A stretch of 62,350 bases of DNA, counting the filler, from Deltaproteobacteria bacterium (lineage in GTDB: Bacteria; JAUYMQ01), in the NCBI GenBank assembly GCA_030698575.1. It is 12 parts of 12 records of this genome, joined end to end, with 100 filler letters (N's around TTAATTAATTAA, not from the genome) between each part and the next. Parts side by side here need not be neighbours in the genome. Positions count along the whole stretch, not along the records: positions 43,436 to 47,765 come from JAUYMQ010000049.1; 11 more parts are not named here. One strand, written 5' to 3'. The notes beneath the pieces are model-generated. The model saw only the letters and a program-made list of their open reading frames with translations. It had not been told where the DNA came from and searched no databases. The translations under genes and the position numbers were made by a program. Shown here piece after piece: positions 43,336 through 50,612 of the stretch; within the stretch, counting starts at the first letter, position 1, and each line of letters opens with the position of its first letter.

Positions 43336-43435
43336 NNNNNNNNNNNNNNNNNNNNNNNNNNNNNNNNNNNNNNNNNNNNTTAATTAATTAANNNNNNNNN
43401 NNNNNNNNNNNNNNNNNNNNNNNNNNNNNNNNNNN

Positions 43436-43854
43436 GCTTGAACGATCTCGAACTTGCGCTCACCAGGCTCATACCAAACCGTCTCACAATAGCTCGGCGG
43501 CGTATTCGGAATGTACTGTTTCGTATGGGTGGCCTGAATTCCCTCCTGGCCCGTCCAGACGATCCCTTCATTGCAGCGCCGCCTCTGGCGCTCGACCGAA
43601 CGGGTCCCGAGTATGATCCCGACACCGAGTTCGTGGAGCGCACTGATGCCGGCTTCGTGGTCAGCAACCGATTGCTTCCAGGCGACGGGATCAAATGACG
43701 ACCTGGCTGCCAGCCAGGGCCCGAACGGAAGTTCGTTCAACACGAAGATGTCCGGTTGAGCGCGGTCGAGGTCGGCGATCAGCTTCACCCAACTCTCCGT
43801 TCCCGGCAACAGCTTCGCGTCCATCTCTCCCACCGCGACGCGAATGGTGCTCAC
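43436..43854 (-). CDS. Carbon-nitrogen hydrolase family protein, 3'-truncated
   Basis: FVLNEL (catalytic Glu) and HTKQYIP (catalytic Lys). Confidence 0.75.
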
Positions 43855-43884
43855 AGGTTCCCTCCAATGAGATGTTCGTCCCGC

Positions 43885-44349
43885 CTAGAGGAACGGCAAC
43901 CACCGATGAACCCGGGCGCAGTAGTTTTCGTAGGCGGCCCCGAAGGTGCGCTTTAGATGGGGCTCTTCATAGAGCCGCACGAACAGATTAAAGGTTGCTG
44001 CCACGCAGATGCCGTAAATAAAAATGTTGAAGGAACGAAACAACAGGGCCCAGCCGCCAATGACAGAAAGCACCCCGACATACATGGGATTACGCGTGTA
44101 CTTGTAGAGCCCGCGCACTACCAGAGTTTTCGGGGGATCAATGGGCGCCGGGGTTCCACGGCCGGTAACCGCGAAGTCCCACAGGCACCATGCGTAAATC
44201 GAGCCGCCGACCAGCAATAGTGCCCCGGCTCCGACCGATTGTAGCGAGAAGGTCGGGGCTGAATGGGTGAAGGCCCGGAGCGGGACAAGTACCGCAACCG
44301 TCCCTGGTACGAGGAGCGTGAAGAGCAGGTTCTTCATGAACAGCGCCAC
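43885..44349 (-). CDS. Isoprenylcysteine carboxylmethyltransferase / PEMT family membrane protein
   Basis: GTPAPIDPP, GLYKYTRNPMY, EEPHL, YCARVHRW. Confidence 0.9.
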   Translation of the reverse strand: MALFMKNLLFTLLVPGTVAVLVPLRAFTHSAPTFSLQSVGAGALLLVGGSIYAWCLWDFAVTGRGTPAPIDPPKTLVVRGLYKYTRNPMYVGVLSVIGGWALLFRSFNIFIYGICVAATFNLFVRLYEEPHLKRTFGAAYENYCARVHRWLPFL

Positions 44350-44363
44350 GGACTTCTCCCGGC

Positions 44364-44419
44364 TACCCAAGGGATCGCTGATAAGCTGGGTACGATGCCC
44401 CGCCCACGCGACGGTTACA
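44364..44419 (-). other. Degenerate attC site
   Basis: Minus strand TGTAAC...CAGCTTATCAGCGATCC-CTTGGGT; core GTT changed to CTT. Confidence 0.45.
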
Positions 44420-44906
44420 TCCTCTTATCGAAAATTAGCTTCTCCGTGAAGACAAGGACGGTTTCGCCCCGTTGATTCTTGAGCACATGCTTCAGGTCGA
44501 CGAGTGTCCGTCCACGTTCAGTCTCCCGATCAACCCGTCCCTCGAGGTCCACACACAGTGTGTCCCCCGGAAAGGCAGGGCGCTGGACCCTGGCCTCGAG
44601 CCCGACCATCCCGTGGAAAGGGCCAAGACCTTCATTCCTGGAGATCGTAGCAACGAGATCCGTGATCGAGGTGGCCACGAGGCCCATTCCAAGGGAAATC
44701 AAGAAGGGTGCTGGTGCAAAGCGCTTGTTGTGCTCGCCCGGCATGTTCTCCTTGACCCACTCCATGTCGATGAACGGTGGTTCGTGAAGACCTGTCAGAT
44801 TCACGAAGTTCACGATGTCGGTTTCAGTGATCGTCCGCCGATGAGAGGACAGGCAATACACCGGCGCAGCGTCGCTACCCTCTTCGATTCGAACGAGTCC
44901 AGACAT
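44415..44906 (-). CDS. MaoC/PaaZ hot-dog dehydratase family protein
   Basis: RTITETDIVNFVNLTG, PAFPGDT, NQRGE. Confidence 0.85.
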   Translation of the reverse strand: MSGLVRIEEGSDAAPVYCLSSHRRTITETDIVNFVNLTGLHEPPFIDMEWVKENMPGEHNKRFAPAPFLISLGMGLVATSITDLVATISRNEGLGPFHGMVGLEARVQRPAFPGDTLCVDLEGRVDRETERGRTLVDLKHVLKNQRGETVLVFTEKLIFDKRM

Positions 44907-44921
44907 CAGTCCGCTCCCTCC

Positions 44922-44981
44922 GCCTAACGATTGAGCACAGTGGCGCCGCAAAGCGGCCCCCGCTGAAGCGAATAGTTGGGA
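44922..44981 (-). other. attC integron recombination site
   Basis: Minus strand TCCCAAC...GCCGCTTTGCGGC...GTTAGGC followed by GGAGG and ATG. Confidence 0.75.
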
Positions 44982-45020
44982 GGCGCTCCATAAGGCAACG
45001 CCTTCAGCAGCCTAGCGATC

Positions 45021-45383
45021 TCACCCCGCCTCGAGCACCATCGTGAGATTGACACCAGAGTCACCGTGTCGGCCCCCAGCCCAGCGAAGCGCATAAACGC
45101 GGACTGAGAGGCTGCAACCCGGACACTCCCAGTCGAGGAAGGGATTGCCTGCCTCACCGTTTTGCGCGGCCCACTCATTAAACGCGCGCTGAACTTCCAG
45201 CGAGAGATTTGAAATCTGTCTTGGGGCGCGCTGCTCAAAGTTTTCCTTCAGGAATCCCACCTGCCGGGCGCAACGGGGACATGTGTAGCCCGCCGTCAGT
45301 GAGAGAGCTCGGCCGTTGATAATCTCGTTCGAGAATGCCGTCTGGTCGAATCGGAGCCCAGCTCTAACGGCTTCCAGCTTCAT
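45021..45383 (-). CDS. Cassette hypothetical protein with two CxxC motifs
   Basis: CPRC and CPGC; ATG just after the attC GTTGGGC core. Confidence 0.7.
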   Translation of the reverse strand: MKLEAVRAGLRFDQTAFSNEIINGRALSLTAGYTCPRCARQVGFLKENFEQRAPRQISNLSLEVQRAFNEWAAQNGEAGNPFLDWECPGCSLSVRVYALRWAGGRHGDSGVNLTMVLEAG

Positions 45384-45389
45384 TGCGCC

Positions 45390-45449
45390 GCCCAACGGAT
45401 GGGCGGCAAGCTGCGAGCCGCGAAGCGGACCGCCACCTTCGCCGGCTTG
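45390..45449 (-). other. attC site split by the IS (remainder at 47080-47085)
   Basis: Removing the IS rebuilds GCCTAACAAGCCGGCGAAGGTGGCGGTCCGCTTCGCGGCTCGCAGCTTGCCGCCCATCCGTTGGGC. Confidence 0.8.
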
Positions 45450-45539
45450 ATACTGATCAAGGCCTCCCCCTGCGCCTACCCCACTTGGGGTAGGCTGGGT
45501 GCGAGTCACCAACGCGCATCCCGCGCAGGAGGAGAACCG

Positions 45540-46586
45540 ATGCGATTTTACACCAAGCAGCACCGCTACTACTGCGGAATCGATCTGCACGCCCGAACCA
45601 TGTACCTCTGCATCCTCGACCAGGCCGGCGAGGTCCTCCTGCACCGCAACGTGAAATCCACGCCGGAAGCCTTCCTCCAGGCGGTCGCTCCCTACCGGGA
45701 GGACCTCGCCGTGGCCGTCGAGTGCATCTTCACCTGGTACTGGCTCGCCGACCTGTGCGCCCGGGAGGGCATCACCTTCGTCCTCGGCCACGCCCTCTAC
45801 ATGAAGGCCATCCACGGCGGCAAGGCCAAGAACGACCGGATCGACGCCCTCAAGATCGCATCGATGCTTCGAGGAGGCATGCTTCCCCAGGCCTACGTCT
45901 ACCCCGCCGGCATGCGCGCCACGCGCGATCTCCTCCGGCGCCGCCTCCATCTCGTACGCAAGCGCGGACAGCTCCTGGCCCACATCCAGAACACGAACCA
46001 CCAGTACAACCTGCCGGACTTCGGTAAGCGGATCGCTTACCCCGCCAACCGCGAAGGGGTCGCCGAGCACTTCGAGGAGGTCGCCGTCCGAAAGAGCATC
46101 GAGGTCGATCTCGCCCTGATCGAGCGCTACGACGCGCTCATTCAGGAGCTCGAACTCTACCTCGTCCGCCAGGCCAAGCAGCACGCGCCCCAGGGCTTCC
46201 AGCTCCTGCGCTCTATCCCCGGCGTGGGCAAGGTCCTGGCCCTGACTATCCTCTATGAGATCCATGACATCCGCCGCTTCGCCCACGTCCAGGAGTTCGC
46301 CTCCTACGCCCGGCTGGTCCGATGCACCAAAGAGTCGGGCGGGAAGAAGCTCGGGAGCGGCGGCAAGAAGATCGGCAACGTCCACCTGAAATGGGCCTTC
46401 TCCGAGGCCGCCATCCTGTTCCTCCGCCACCGCGCCGAGGGGAAAAAGCTCTTGGCTCGCCTCCAAAAGCGGCACGGAAAGGGCAAGGCCCTCTCCATCC
46501 TGGCCCACAAGCTCGGACGGGCCGCCTACCACATGCTGGCCCGCGGCCGGGCCTTCGACTTGGAGAAGTTCTTGGCACACGCCTGA
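45540..46586 (+). CDS. IS110-family DEDD recombinase
   Basis: GIDLHA, AVEC, KNDRIDA, SIPGVG, ESGG; AGGAGGAG RBS. Confidence 0.95.
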   Translation: MRFYTKQHRYYCGIDLHARTMYLCILDQAGEVLLHRNVKSTPEAFLQAVAPYREDLAVAVECIFTWYWLADLCAREGITFVLGHALYMKAIHGGKAKNDRIDALKIASMLRGGMLPQAYVYPAGMRATRDLLRRRLHLVRKRGQLLAHIQNTNHQYNLPDFGKRIAYPANREGVAEHFEEVAVRKSIEVDLALIERYDALIQELELYLVRQAKQHAPQGFQLLRSIPGVGKVLALTILYEIHDIRRFAHVQEFASYARLVRCTKESGGKKLGSGGKKIGNVHLKWAFSEAAILFLRHRAEGKKLLARLQKRHGKGKALSILAHKLGRAAYHMLARGRAFDLEKFLAHA

Positions 46587-46590
46587 GGGA

Positions 46591-46990
46591 GGAGAGCGGG
46601 TGAGCCCATTGTCTAACTCGAGCCTGAGGGACCTGAGCTCGTTCCGATCGCTTCGTTCCCATGCGTCTTCAATCGCGGGAGGCGTCGATCATGAGCCCCA
46701 AGGTCCGGCAGCCCCGGCGTTTGATTGGACGCCCGCTCTCCTTCCGCACCCATCGCGAGCGGCGCACGCGGCTTCACGATGCTTCGCCCCTCCCCCGAGC
46801 CTGCAGACAACGGACCTTCGAGGTCGCTCGTCTTGAATAGGCCGGTACGAGGGCACGGATGAGTTTCTAGGCCGCAGGAGCCTAGCTTCTGCTCTCCGCC
46901 CTGGCGGAGATCGAGCCTCGATAGGTGTTGGGTGCGGAGCTTCAGCTCCCCGCCAGCATAGAGAAACGAAGTCGGAGCACAGTGTCGCTG
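46591..46990 (+). ncRNA. Candidate bridge/seek RNA of the IS
   Basis: Nested stems with internal loops resembling the attC target and the element's own end junction. Confidence 0.55.
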
Positions 46991-47161
46991 CCAAGCCGCC
47001 CGTTCAAGACTCAACGCGGCCGATCGAGTCGGCCGATGAGGAGACTCTTACCCCTTGACGGGGGGAGGCCTTATAGGTGTTAGGCGCCCACATGATGTGG
47101 CCGCCCATTCCTGCGAGAGCACCGCAGCCTGCTCTAGCACCATGCGGAGTCATGCGACACG

Positions 47162-47765
47162 CTATTTGCGTATACCACTCAGGAACTCGTCCACGTACGG
47201 GAAGCTCCTCTCCAAGACTTCCAGCAACGTCGTGCCGACCTGCGTGGTCAGCCTTTTGAGATCAAAGCACTCCAAGACCGCACGCAGATGCTCGTCACTA
47301 CCAGATGGAAACCTGTGCCGCTCCAACAGATACCTGGCGACAACTTGCAGCTCGCTCGGTGGAATCTCCTCGAATGATCGCGGCCCCCTGGTTCGCAACT
47401 TGATCGGTGGGCTTCCGTTCATTCTGACGACGGAGAATAGCAGGCCCCTTTCACTCACCTCATTCTCGGAAACAAGACGCTGTTCTCGAATGGCGTTCGC
47501 AAGCGCCTTGTTCATAGTGCTCTTGAGTTCATGGCCCATTCGCTTGATGCCGCAGCCCCTCAGGTAAATGTCGTAGGCTCGCTTCGCAACCACCGGGCCT
47601 TCGACCTCGACGATCCGGACAATGCCTTCCGAAACCCTATGCGCGTTGACGCTGCGAGGATCATTCCCAGGAAGGCCGGCATACTCCACATAATCGCTGA
47701 ATGGCAGATTGGCGTCTCGCGAGTTGACCGGAGGAACGATCAATTGCGCACGGCCAAAGAGATTC
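47162..47765 (-). CDS. C-terminus of a large protein (DUF3320-like winged-helix region), 5'-truncated
   Basis: IVEVEGPV and RSFEEIPPSEL motifs; followed by the split attC. Confidence 0.5.
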
Positions 47766-47865
47766 NNNNNNNNNNNNNNNNNNNNNNNNNNNNNNNNNNN
47801 NNNNNNNNNTTAATTAATTAANNNNNNNNNNNNNNNNNNNNNNNNNNNNNNNNNNNNNNNNNNNN

Positions 47866-48246
47866 GGGTTCGGCGTGCTCCACCATGTCGATCTGCCGGG
47901 GTCGCGTGACGCGCTCTACCGCGTGCTGAAGCCAGGCGGCGTCGCAATTTTCAACGAGCCGCTGGGGCACAACTACCCCCTCGAGTTCGCGCGCAAGTAC
48001 CTTCCCTATCCGAACAAGGAAGGACACGCCACCGACATCCCGCTCAAGATGAAGGACATCGAGCTGTTCGGAGAACCGTTCTCGCGGCACACGGTTACCC
48101 CCTACTACCTGTTCAGCATGATCGAGCAGGCGATGGGGCGGCAGATGCCCAACTCCCCCCTGCGCCGCCTCGACACGGCCATCGCCACGCACATGCCGTG
48201 GCTCGGCCGTTACTATCGCATGGCGATGCTGGCTTACTACAAGTAG
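47866..48246 (+). CDS. Class I SAM methyltransferase, C-terminal part
   Basis: VLHHVD...RVLKPGG. Confidence 0.8.
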   Translation, partial: GFGVLHHVDLPGSRDALYRVLKPGGVAIFNEPLGHNYPLEFARKYLPYPNKEGHATDIPLKMKDIELFGEPFSRHTVTPYYLFSMIEQAMGRQMPNSPLRRLDTAIATHMPWLGRYYRMAMLAYYK

Positions 48247-50512: not shown

Positions 50513-50612
50513 NNNNNNNNNNNNNNNNNNNNNNNNNNNNNNNNNNNNNNNNNNNNTTAATTAATTAANNNNNNNNNNNNNNNNNNNNNNNNNNNNNNNN
50601 NNNNNNNNNNNN

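Follow-up and report, generated by a model that had tools for sequence, protein, structure and literature searches.

A predicted long bridge RNA with a second target-like loop in an attC-inserted IS1111-type element

Results

An IS1111-type element interrupts an integron attC core

The stretch of DNA analysed here (62,350 nt in full, hereafter the window) carries an IS1111-type element that is inserted in an attC site (Table 1). The element measures 1630 bp when one copy of the TG core is counted, and positions 46591-46990 lie in its 3′ non-coding part. Its layout is IS1111-like, since it combines a short left end (90 nt), a long downstream non-coding region (right end ~490 nt) and a perfect 12-bp subterminal inverted repeat, whose copies stand 9 nt inside the left terminus and 5 nt inside the right one. 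The encoded transposase matches the Pfam families DEDD_Tnp_IS110 (E 1.6e-16) and Transposase_20 (E 5.7e-20), its 348 aa agree with the lengths of its homologues, and in the window the gene is oriented against the cassette genes. One full copy of the element is present in its own genome, which also encodes an integron integrase.

Table 1. Features of the element, its insertion site and its predicted RNA (positions in the window)
Feature	Position	Strand	Details
Interrupted attC-like site, left part	45390-45449	-	Far-end core GCCCAAC 45390-45396, left target flank, left core TG 45448-45449
IS1111-type insertion sequence	45450-47079	+	Ends set by comparison with ~100 relatives
Left subterminal inverted repeat AAGGCCTCCCCC	45459-45470	+	12 nt, 100% complementary to 47061-47072
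DEDD recombinase/transposase gene	45540-46586	+	348 aa; ATG 45540 behind GGAGGA, start picked by eye
Domain A	46588-46745	+	P1 46588-46602/46730-46745; P1a 46605-46606/46727-46728; P2 46619-46633/46703-46713 with hairpin 46663-46666/46673-46676
Right-target guide GUCUAAC, loop 1 5′ side	46611-46617	+	Complementary to top strand, core G to right flank +6
Left-target guide, 3′ side of loop 1	46717-46725	+	46717-46723 in the sense of left flank -5 to -1 and core TG
Domain B	46781-46978	+	P3 46781-46787/46971-46978; P4 46788-46792/46849-46853; P5 46795-46797/46843-46845 plus 46800-46802/46839-46841; P6 46813-46815/46823-46825; P7 46863-46867/46963-46967; P8 46869-46874/46912-46918; P9 46931-46935/46950-46954
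Loop 2, second target-like internal loop	46803-46838	+	5′ strand 46803-46812; 3′ strand 46826-46838
Right-donor guide	46858-46864	+	Complementary to IS left end +3 to +9; shares 2 nt with helix P7
Left-donor guide AUAGGUG	46921-46929	+	In the sense of IS right end -5 to -1 and core TG, then UU
Candidate -35 box TTGACG	47055-47060	+	GATACT 45449-45454 would be 18 nt downstream in the circle; spacing by eye
Right subterminal inverted repeat GGGGGAGGCCTT	47061-47072	+	Partner of 45459-45470
Right core TG and right target flank TTAGGC	47078-47085	-	Together the GTTAGGC attC core

The insertion point is the integron attC core, TTG^TTAGGC (junctions marked ^). The left part of the interrupted site shares 91% identity over 53 nt with an uninterrupted attC-like site on a contig (C210) of the same genome, GTCTAAC...GTTAGGC, which folds into an imperfect hairpin (z -4.05). 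Across ~100 relatives the left end reads nnTTG^ATACTCAT... and the right end ...TTATA(A/G/C)G^TG^TTAGGC. The right flanks in the family are GTTRRRY-like, mostly TGTTAGGC, TGTTGGGC or TGTTATGC, with a canonical far-end RYYYAAC within 35-135 nt in only 23 of 88 elements. A contig of sequencing run X2 has the identical right end followed by a different flank past 47084, and neither a circle junction nor an empty site was seen among the contigs of four DNA runs.

Two collections yielded over 900 relatives, from groundwater and sediment genomes to Vibrio and Alteromonas plasmids. We fetched 160 of the more than 970 detected in all and compared 104 (transposase identity 53-100%), and 88 elements with distinct flanks were used for counting covariation with flanks and ends. 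The downstream non-coding region of the relatives spans 410-550 nt (median ~500). Plasmid members from Vibrio campbellii and Catenovulum, at ~54-55% transposase identity, retain the motifs of loop 1, loop 2 and the right-end guide described below and differ in the left-end guide region. The transposase was found at E <= 1e-40 in none of 60 other genomes of host relatives, tblastn against 72,556 plasmids returned no relative above 67% identity, no Klebsiella appeared among the 75 of 241 plasmid records listed by tblastn, and a DNA search of plasmids with 46780-46990 gave no match.

The 3′ non-coding region probably encodes a conserved structured RNA

We found that a structured RNA of ~390 nt (46588-46978) with strong compensatory base-pair changes is common to the 104 relatives. 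In domain A, helices P1 and P1a enclose loop 1 and the long arm P2; its 30 pairs are paired in 84.1% of cases across the relatives, compared with 36-48% when the pairing was slid, and its covariation score of 0.463 stands against 0.10-0.14 in slid registers, with none of 500 shuffles reaching the observed value. Domain B, with 37 pairs, is paired in 92.2% (30-48% slid) and scores 0.267 (0.05-0.075 slid; again 0/500 shuffles). Changes on both sides were recorded in 53 of the 67 pairs of the two domains. P1 is also seen in the window alone, as inverted repeat I4, and the stem that a preliminary description of this locus had drawn around loop 1 (46591-46602/46730-46741) is part of P1 and carries compensatory changes in the 104 relatives.

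In domain B, GUUUC (46863-46867) pairs with GAAAC (46963-46967), and the resulting helix P7 encloses a three-way junction made up of the P8 arm and the P9 hairpin, with AUAGGUGUU single-stranded between both. An Rfam scan of 44800-47770 on both strands returned nothing relevant; a malK-III match was at chance level (E 0.24), on the other strand and inside the coding region.

The preliminary description had proposed a candidate bridge RNA in this region on the basis of stem-enclosed loops with short motifs, all of which are placed as it gave them: GTCTAAC (46611-46617), CGTTTG (46718-46723), AGACAAC (46805-46811), CGTCTTG (46829-46835), GAGTTTC (46861-46867), ATAGGTG (46921-46927) and CAGTGTCG (46980-46987). 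The compensatory changes and the guide covariation support a bridge/seek RNA of an IS110-family (IS1111-type) element. Among the 104 relatives, the motif segments are among the most conserved non-coding columns, and four segments covary with flanks or ends.

Loop 1 covaries with the target flanks

Loop 1 had been proposed to read the attC target, and both of its strands bear this out. The left-target guide agrees with its own left flank at 271 of 440 positions, against 167±9 with shuffled flanks (z 11.2, 0/5000), while slid registers gave no signal; identity by position is 0.56, 0.62, 0.56, 0.51, 0.84, 0.98 and 1.00, and 0.20 at -6. The right-target guide shows complementarity of 0.99, 0.99, 0.98, 0.88, 0.74, 0.72 and 0.77 along its length, and its permutation result (269/352 versus 248±4, z 5.3, 0/5000) is register-specific: a C meets G at +3 in 7/9 and a G meets C there in 3/3, and an A meets T at +4 in 6/7. 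The bases that follow the left-target guide, 46724-46725 (AU), are identical to the two bases that begin the IS left end, a handshake-like arrangement. Because the left-flank guide varies among relatives in step with their own attC sequence, loop 1 is, judging from these co-changes, a working and programmable target-binding loop.

The relatives L017 and L020 have the right flank TAGGTG in place of TTAGGC. Their loop 1 guide reads CACCUA (by eye) and fits the altered flank, and the loop 2 base 46809 and the post-core base 46929 are also changed to fit it. This pair is a case of natural retargeting, and the co-change is a single evolutionary event.

Donor guides are arranged around a three-way junction

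ATAGGTG at 46921-46927 is identical to 47073-47079 (right end plus core) and belongs to a 15-nt match at 87% (46921-46935 versus 47073-47087). Its proposed role as the right-end donor guide was borne out at the one variable right-end position, -2, where base 46924 is identical in 79/88 elements (A 47, G 23, C 8, T 1; z 10.1). The UU that follows equals right flank +1 and +2, with 46929 and +2 being T/T in 86 and A/A in 2. On the other side, base 46861 and left end +6 form G-C 43, A-T 10, T-A 10 and C-G 1 times, with a T/C mismatch in 19 of the 88 elements, and A at 46860 pairs with T at +7 in 5/5. The permutation z of 4.9 for this right-donor guide is overstated, as ends and guide are inherited together; shared descent inflates the guide/IS-end covariation statistics in general. 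Same-sense guides contain UG (0.86-1.00). In the complementary guides, pairing takes in the core G (0.99-1.00) and leaves out the core T, which is faced by U in 64-78 of 88. The comparison confirms 46921-46927 and 46858-46864 as the predicted donor-binding guides in domain B.

The preliminary description had placed GAGTTTC in a third internal loop. The region around this motif does hold the left-end guide, with 46858-46864 as its covarying part, but the fold is a three-way junction with most of GAGTTTC in a helix. The right-donor guide overlaps P7, and the covariation of P7 argues that 46863-46867 are paired in the free RNA. An alternative left-end guide suggested at 46980 did not hold: a 7-nt run occurs in 77/2000 shuffles of the region and 88/300 shuffles of the whole non-coding sequence, and in 88 relatives the mean best run against their own left end is 4.9 (5.0 when shuffled).

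Since the motifs are only 6-7 nt long and the one at 46980 is at chance level, we also considered that the matches arose by chance in a GC-rich untranslated tail with no guide RNA; the conservation and compensatory changes in the 104 relatives and the register-specific covariation with 88 flanks make this exceedingly improbable.

The guides of the window itself fit their own site imperfectly, which speaks against a bridge RNA reading: the left-target guide agrees with its flank at only 4/7 positions, and its left-end guide is mismatched (G-G) at +6.

Loop 2 is conserved and target-like but does not follow the variable flanks

Loop 2 is closed by 46800-46802/46839-46841 and by the hairpin 46813-46815/46823-46825. 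Its 5′ strand reads AGACAAC here (consensus GCUAAC) and its 3′ strand CGUCUUGAAU (consensus CUUUUGAAU). AAC and UUG(A) are 97-100% conserved and placed as in loop 1. AAC (46809-46811) is complementary to the core G and right flank +1 and +2 in 99-100%, and UUG(A) (46833-46836) has identities of 0.69, 0.97 and 0.97 to left flank -1 and the core. Complementarity to the far-end core RYYYAAC, a candidate for which occurs in only 23/88, was not above shuffled (z 1.3). In reciprocal profile scans of loops 1 and 2 (with both strands of loop 1 and the 5′ strand of loop 2), the other loop was the best outside match in 29-37 of 104, with low scores, and the likeness of the two loops may reflect common constraints rather than duplication. 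The segment UGAGUA of the 3′ strand is complementary to the left end TACTCA at 416/528 positions (z 4.4), with supporting changes from essentially one clade; we did not adopt it as a left-end guide, as G46835 never follows the variable left-end base +6.

Loop 2 had been proposed as a second target loop that might widen the recognition of variable attC sites. The loop itself, its conservation and its target-like make-up are confirmed by the alignment of relatives, but its role as a variable target guide is not, as no target covariation was found beyond the invariant core, except in the L017/L020 pair. Loop 2 could still be a true second target-binding loop, whose short guides would read T-TG-TTA(G) of attC cores, with the 3′ strand sometimes reading the left flank, so that the element could accept attC sites that fit loop 1 poorly. 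This agrees with the near-invariant AAC/UUG at exactly the loop 1 positions and with base 46809, which changes from A to U in L017/L020 and there fits right flank +2. The 3′ segment also agrees with left flank -5 to -1 to a small, though more than zero, extent (166/440 versus 146±8, z 2.6, 26/5000 permutations as high); at least 3/4 positions match in 12/88 elements (6.8% expected), and in the window loop 2 matches the left flank at 6/7 positions and loop 1 at 4/7. However, these signals are small beside those of loop 1, and the 5′ segment lacks covariation with right flank +3 to +6 (145/352, z -0.6), with C at 46808 going with G in only 4/16. Moreover, among elements that loop 1 fits poorly (<=1/4), loop 2 fits well in only 4/28. 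The L017/L020 change, being one event, is also explained by RNA-RNA pairing of 46807-46811 with 46927-46931. Weighing these points, we regard a true second target-binding loop as possible but rather doubtful.

Such a pairing is part of another explanation, by which loop 2 would be a scaffold for recombinase binding, in the form of a degenerate duplicate of loop 1, or CUAAC would pair with GUU(U/G)G at 46927-46931 and mask the guide. The constant sequence, which does not track the flanks, is consistent with either form. The two segments are complementary at 4/5 positions (by eye), and 46809/46929 changes from A-U to U-A in L017/L020, as 46808/46930 does from U-U to C-G in the clade of the window. 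But most elements have a U-U mismatch at 46808/46930, an outcome that selection for a helix would not predict, and guides for opposite strands of the same DNA bases are necessarily complementary, so their pairing is not independent evidence; we hold a scaffold or masking role to be unlikely, though worth keeping in mind. Alternatively, loop 2 may serve the integrated element, either by recognising, with the donor guides, both junctions of IS and flank for excision, or by keeping hold of the old flank during the engagement of a new site by loop 1. Both donor guides are its neighbours in domain B, and it matches only the flank parts that are constant at every insertion (T-TG, G-TTA). Published work is in line with this: IS1111 excision needs target-derived flanks (PMC11187229), the geometry of the two-loop IS621 RNA disfavours excision (PMC13626964), and direct transfer is reported to proceed via a second target loop in trans (bioRxiv 10.1101/2025.10.25.684509), of which loop 2 would be a built-in form, equivalent to a "TBL-only RNA plus bridge RNA". 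Against this, the idea is drawn from the layout, the bases read are invariant, so that covariation is uninformative, and the cited mechanisms come from IS110-type rather than IS1111-type elements; we consider it improbable. Overall, loop 2 is most likely a second, non-programmable, target-like module predicted to bind the recombinase, and it reads at most the invariant T-TG-TTA centre by a putative DNA contact.

Discussion

Bridge and seek RNAs are under development as programmable recombination tools. To our knowledge, the descriptions of all characterised members give each a single target loop and a single donor loop. The region 46588-46978 probably encodes a long bridge/seek RNA that, as predicted from comparative sequence analysis, guides the DEDD recombinase through a programmable loop 1, donor guides and a conserved loop 2. 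Because it has three guide-bearing regions, with loop 2 additional to target and donor, the RNA is a bridge RNA variant with an extra target-like loop rather than a standard bridge RNA, and it belongs to a large attC-targeting family.

The IS1111 seekRNAs of ISEc11, ISPa11, ISKpn4 and ISPst6, as described in PMC11187229 and PMC11208160, likewise lie downstream of a 330-350-aa DEDD transposase in elements with subterminal inverted repeats (7-17 bp in the group, 12 bp here). The guide order is also shared, as the top-strand target match stands 5′ of the bottom-strand match and the matches overlap at the insertion point, and a junction promoter is described for ISEc11 (PMC11187229), to which the -35-like TTGACG box in the right end here is a candidate counterpart. 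In contrast, a review table lists IS1111 seekRNAs of 82-96 nt, with long forms of 148-172 nt, whereas the structured RNA here is ~390 nt, in a non-coding region of ~490 nt, and has an added domain with donor guides and the second target-like loop. With the IS621 bridge RNA (Durrant 2024; Hiraizumi 2024, PMC11208158) it shares stem-flanked internal loops, one guide per DNA strand of target and donor, the core in the same-sense guides and a 2-nt extension to the non-cognate partner, like handshake guides. The IS621 RNA, however, lies upstream of the gene, has two loops only and has the reverse guide order. Its handshake bases stand beside the top-strand guides and not, as here, beside the bottom-strand guides; in our family the top-strand guides pair with a single core base, the G of TG, and the donor guides are arranged around a three-way junction instead of a simple internal loop.

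Targeting of one attC end is shared with the IS1111-attC group (ISKpn4, ISPst6, ISPa25; Post & Hall 2009 and Tetu & Holmes 2008, cited via PMC11187229). The review table gives the ISKpn4 and ISPst6 targets as CGGCTTGAA^CGAATTGTTAG and CGATTTGAA^CGCATTGTTAG (AA^CG), ~10 nt from GTTAG, whereas the insertion here, TTG^TTAGGC, is inside the core site. Going by the listed target sites, the family is set apart from ISKpn4 and ISPst6 and inserts at another position. In the literature covered, neither a three-loop bridge RNA nor the present family is described, and PMC12288879 and PMC13604230 mention no third or additional loop. This scope stops short of the supplements of PMC11187229, PMC11208160 and the preprint 10.64898/2026.10.21.760802, whose long seekRNA folds and predicted IS1111 bridge RNAs might show such an architecture.

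We propose that the DEDD recombinase would be guided by the long RNA from the 3′ non-coding region (about 46588-46978). The RNA would be made from a junction promoter after circularisation, with TTGACG from the right end and GATACT from the left end, and would arise by processing of the transposase transcript. Nearly all of the listed right ends keep TTGAC, and the interior of the linear element contains no sigma-70-like promoter. Each same-sense guide would extend beyond the core by 2 nt that belong to the non-cognate partner (AU, the left end; UU, the right flank); as these extensions match the recombinant junctions, they may resemble the IS621 handshake guides. Loop 2, built like loop 1, would be hard-wired to the invariant target centre (T-TG-TTA).

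Taken further, the RNA might be a three-module guide, with a programmable loop 1, a donor module and a hard-wired loop 2 on the attC core centre or the current flanks, an arrangement to which we give only a small chance. If true, a single RNA would bind three DNA sites or both junctions of the IS, it would have excision or direct transfer from donor to target built in without a second RNA or an unfavourable geometry, and a synaptic complex larger than the IS621 tetramer would be implied.

The third loop is kept under strong conservation in a large family of more than 900 relatives. If it reads DNA or recruits a further recombinase dimer, it would bear on excision and on how these elements cope with variable attC targets; if it is only a scaffold, it would reveal the portions of a target loop that protein binding requires. 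The family represents a second way for IS1111 elements to attack integron cassettes, by a cut at G^TT inside the core site, and provides a clean natural set of guide-flank pairs that includes the retargeted lineage.

Organization of the element and its attC insertion site

The ORF with its 3′ end at 46586 encodes both IS110-family recombinase domains (DEDD_Tnp_IS110 and Transposase_20) and, if it starts at ATG 45540 behind GGAGGA, a 348-aa protein, a length seen in many homologues. The short left end, long 3′ non-coding region and subterminal repeat match the IS1111 layout as outlined in passages of PMC11187229 and PMC11208160. No sigma-70-like promoter was found inside the linear element; in a circle, the conserved TTGAC of the right end and GATACT of the left terminus would lie 18 nt apart, counted by eye. 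The 4.3-kb contig carrying the bridge RNA region (about 43392-47766, contig C93) holds the sole full copy in this 91.6%-complete genome. The window joins several contigs by N runs around TTAATTAATTAA linkers (43355-43395, 47767-47866, 50540-50600 and elsewhere), and ORFs running into these linkers are artefacts. A 519-aa ORF antisense to the transposase gene (45021-46580, minus strand), gene-like only in its last 120 codons, is most likely a high-G+C artefact.

In the window, the target sequence is ...CGGCT-TG-TTAGGC. Another contig of the genome (C210) has an uninterrupted site, GTCTAAC...GTTAGGC, whose fold is an imperfect hairpin; over the 53 nt left of the element, identity to this site is 91%. 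An integron integrase is likewise encoded in the genome (450.8 bits; cut-off 265), and the genes adjoining the element lie on the minus strand. Because of these observations, we conclude that the element is inserted within the GCCTAA|C core that begins an attC, with its recombinase gene opposed to the cassettes. The integrase gene is on another short contig (G000:C206:1016-1957, locus L166), the integron platform and cassette array being fragmented in this assembly. The targets listed for ISKpn4 and ISPst6 in a review table (PMC13604230) put insertion about 10 nt from GTTAG and therefore, by listed targets, the present family inserts at another position of attC. A canonical RYYYAAC 35-135 nt upstream was present in only 23/88 insertion sites (left flanks of related loci); the shortfall reflects either widespread degeneration of far-end cores or a target range of the family that goes beyond full attC sites.

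Features of the element, its RNA and its neighbours
Feature	Position	Strand	Details
Element	45450-47079		
Core TG copies	45448-49 and 47078-79		
Left end of element			90 nt
Subterminal inverted repeat	45459-70 / 47061-72		12 bp, perfect
Non-coding region 3′ of recombinase gene			roughly 490 nt
Flanking cassette-like gene	45021-45383	-	120 aa, two CxxC pairs, no family assigned
Flanking cassette-like gene	47162-47743	-	193 aa, sub-threshold DUF3320 match (23.8 bits, cut-off 25)
Domain A	46588-46745		30 pairs counted, both-side changes in 29/30; 84.1% of cells paired (36-48% with partner slid); covariation score 0.463 (0.10-0.14 slid; 0/500 shuffles as high)
Domain B	46781-46978		37 pairs counted, both-side changes in 24/37; 92.2% of cells paired (30-48% with partner slid); covariation score 0.267 (0.05-0.075 slid; 0/500 shuffles as high)
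Right-target guide	46611-17		loop 1, 5′ side; complementary to top strand, core G to right flank +6
Left-target guide	46717-23		loop 1, 3′ side; sense of left flank -5 to -1 plus TG
Left-end (right-donor) guide	46858-64		four complementary base combinations between 46861 and left end +6 (inflated by shared descent)
Right-end (left-donor) guide	46921-27		46924 identical in 79/88 to the single variable base close to the right terminus (inflated by shared descent)
5′ side consensus			loop 1 GAGCC-N4-GUCUAACUGG; loop 2 GAGCC-N4-GCUAACUGG
3′ side consensus			loop 1 UUUGAUUGGAC; loop 2 UUUGAAUAGGAC

Related elements

Scans of a genome and a metagenome collection confirmed 434 and 537 relatives, and the best 80 of 434 and best 80 of 537 were taken, giving 160 fetched loci with transposase identity of 53-82%. 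A plus-strand protein match occurred in 150 sequences, 112 of these with a recognisable right end. Eight rows with a non-coding length outside 400-570 nt were left out (46, 315, 315, 624, 656, 658, 658 and 678), and 104 sequences were aligned: 95 with at least 140 nt upstream, 92 with a standard left terminus, and 88 with the two ends and full flanks, no two of the 88 flank pairs being identical. Right ends read ...TTGAC...GGAGGCCTTATA(A/G/C)G, then TG and mostly TTAGGC, TTGGGC or TTATGC, while left ends read nnTTG, then ATACTCAT TAAGGCC. Close homologues were abundant in metagenomes, and a sediment run of another study contained identical pieces of the element's non-coding region. Vibrio campbellii and Catenovulum plasmid members (about 54-55% transposase identity) retain the motifs of loop 1, loop 2 and the right-end guide and differ in the left-end guide region.

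In several genomes, copies of the same element lie a few kb apart on one contig (L004/L005, about 2.9 kb; L010/L011; L055/L056/L062; L129/L130; L091/L096), a pattern that insertion into consecutive attC sites of a cassette array would produce. The Catenovulum adriaticum plasmid carries a tandem duplication of the last ~24 nt of the right end (L165:3061-3112, GACCTCGGGGAGGCTCATATGT). Two loci, L030 and L036, have a second right-end match 245-335 nt past the first, which may represent solo right ends or partial nested copies.

Loop 1 covaries with the insertion site

A consensus structure was obtained with RNAalifold on the 104 sequences, and base pairs were then counted on two alignments. Loop 1 is an internal loop bounded by P1/P1a and the long arm P2. 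When flanks were shuffled among elements (5000 permutations), identity of the left-target guide to the left flank (271/440) far exceeded the shuffled value (167±9, z 11.2, 0/5000 as high), as did complementarity of the right-target guide to the right flank (269/352 versus 248±4, z 5.3, 0/5000 as high). No flank signal appeared for loop 1 guides in registers slid by 1-3 nt. Per position, right-target complementarity fell from 0.99 to 0.72, and the flank changed with the guide at +3 (C-G pairing 7/9, G-C 3/3) and +4 (A-T 6/7); left-target identity was 0.51-0.62 at highly variable positions and fell to 0.20 at -6. Because inheritance of the element does not include its flanks, the sequence covariation is good evidence for site selection by loop 1, in agreement with the preliminary description, which had read this loop as an attC target reader and whose observation proved real. 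A naturally retargeted lineage was also observed in two Syntrophales/delta-proteobacterial MAGs (L017/L020), with TAGGTG in place of TTAGGC as the right flank; to fit it, changes have occurred in the loop 1 guide, in one base of loop 2 and in the right-end-guide base after the core.

Donor guides and the junction

The proposed donor guides likewise held up, each covarying with its IS end, with counts inflated by shared descent: 46861 against left end +6 gave G-C 43, A-T 10, T-A 10 and C-G 1, with a T opposite C mismatch in 19, and 46860 tracked +7 in 5/5. The third internal loop in which they had been drawn gave way to a different fold, in which the GUUUC/GAAAC helix P7 closes off a three-way junction; the left-end guide sits immediately 5′ of this helix and overlaps it in part, and the right-end guide is a single-stranded stretch between P8 and P9. 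An alternative left-end guide proposed at 46980 was noise.

Beyond the core, the left-target guide goes on with AU and the right-end guide with UU; AU equals bases 1-2 of the IS left end and UU bases 1-2 of the right flank, and the UU becomes UA in the two elements whose flank starts TA. Thus, each same-sense guide matches a recombinant junction. The handshake guides of IS621, as covered in part of PMC11208158, would by our inference follow the same logic, whereas the extensions of the present family sit beside the other guide. In the window copy, the left-end guide and the left end form a G-G mismatch at +6, and the loop 1 left guide matches its own flank poorly; poor fit and single copy are compatible with off-optimal insertion or decay.

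A conserved second target-like loop

Loop 2, an internal loop bounded by P5 and hairpin P6, mirrors the layout of loop 1 in the consensus strings read from the alignment of relatives. Its AAC (46809-11) is opposite the core G and right flank +1,+2 in 99-100% of elements, and its UUG (46833-35) equals left flank -1 plus core in 69-97%. In the permutation test, the remaining positions of the 5′ strand did not track the right flank (145/352, z -0.6), and the 3′ strand gave 166/440 against the left flank (shuffled 146±8, z 2.6, 26/5000 as high). At least 3 of 4 loop 2 positions matched the left flank in 12/88 elements versus 6.8% expected; the window is among them (6/7 for loop 2 versus 4/7 for loop 1), and a good match occurred in only 4/28 elements with a poor loop 1 fit. 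The 3′ strand (46830-46842) is also 85% complementary over 13 nt to 46998-47010; relatives have mainly gaps in this poorly conserved tail, so the complementarity is probably peculiar to the window copy.

The idea of a second target loop was upheld as regards conservation and target-like layout, but its variable positions do not follow the flanks. In L017/L020, 46809 changes from A to U, as expected of a target guide; this is one event, and it would also keep a possible pairing with 46929. With AAC and UUG conserved and the other positions not following the flanks, loop 2 is target-like but hard-wired, fitted to the central part of the site that does not vary. It may serve in DNA reading, IS-junction reading or protein binding alone, and is a genuine, conserved addition.

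IS1111 seekRNAs are tabulated at 82-96 nt (148-172 nt for the long forms) in a review (PMC13604230) that, among others, describes bridge RNAs with two loops. Departures from the IS621 structure are noted for many predicted bridge RNAs in passages of the 2026 preprint 10.64898/2026.10.21.760802, and those passages contain no description of a third loop. Parts of two further reports describe excision as geometrically disfavoured with the two-loop IS621 RNA (PMC13626964) and propose a direct-transfer route that requires a separate target-loop RNA (10.1101/2025.10.25.684509). Given these, a built-in second target-like loop would be mechanistically interesting, a link that we offer as speculation.
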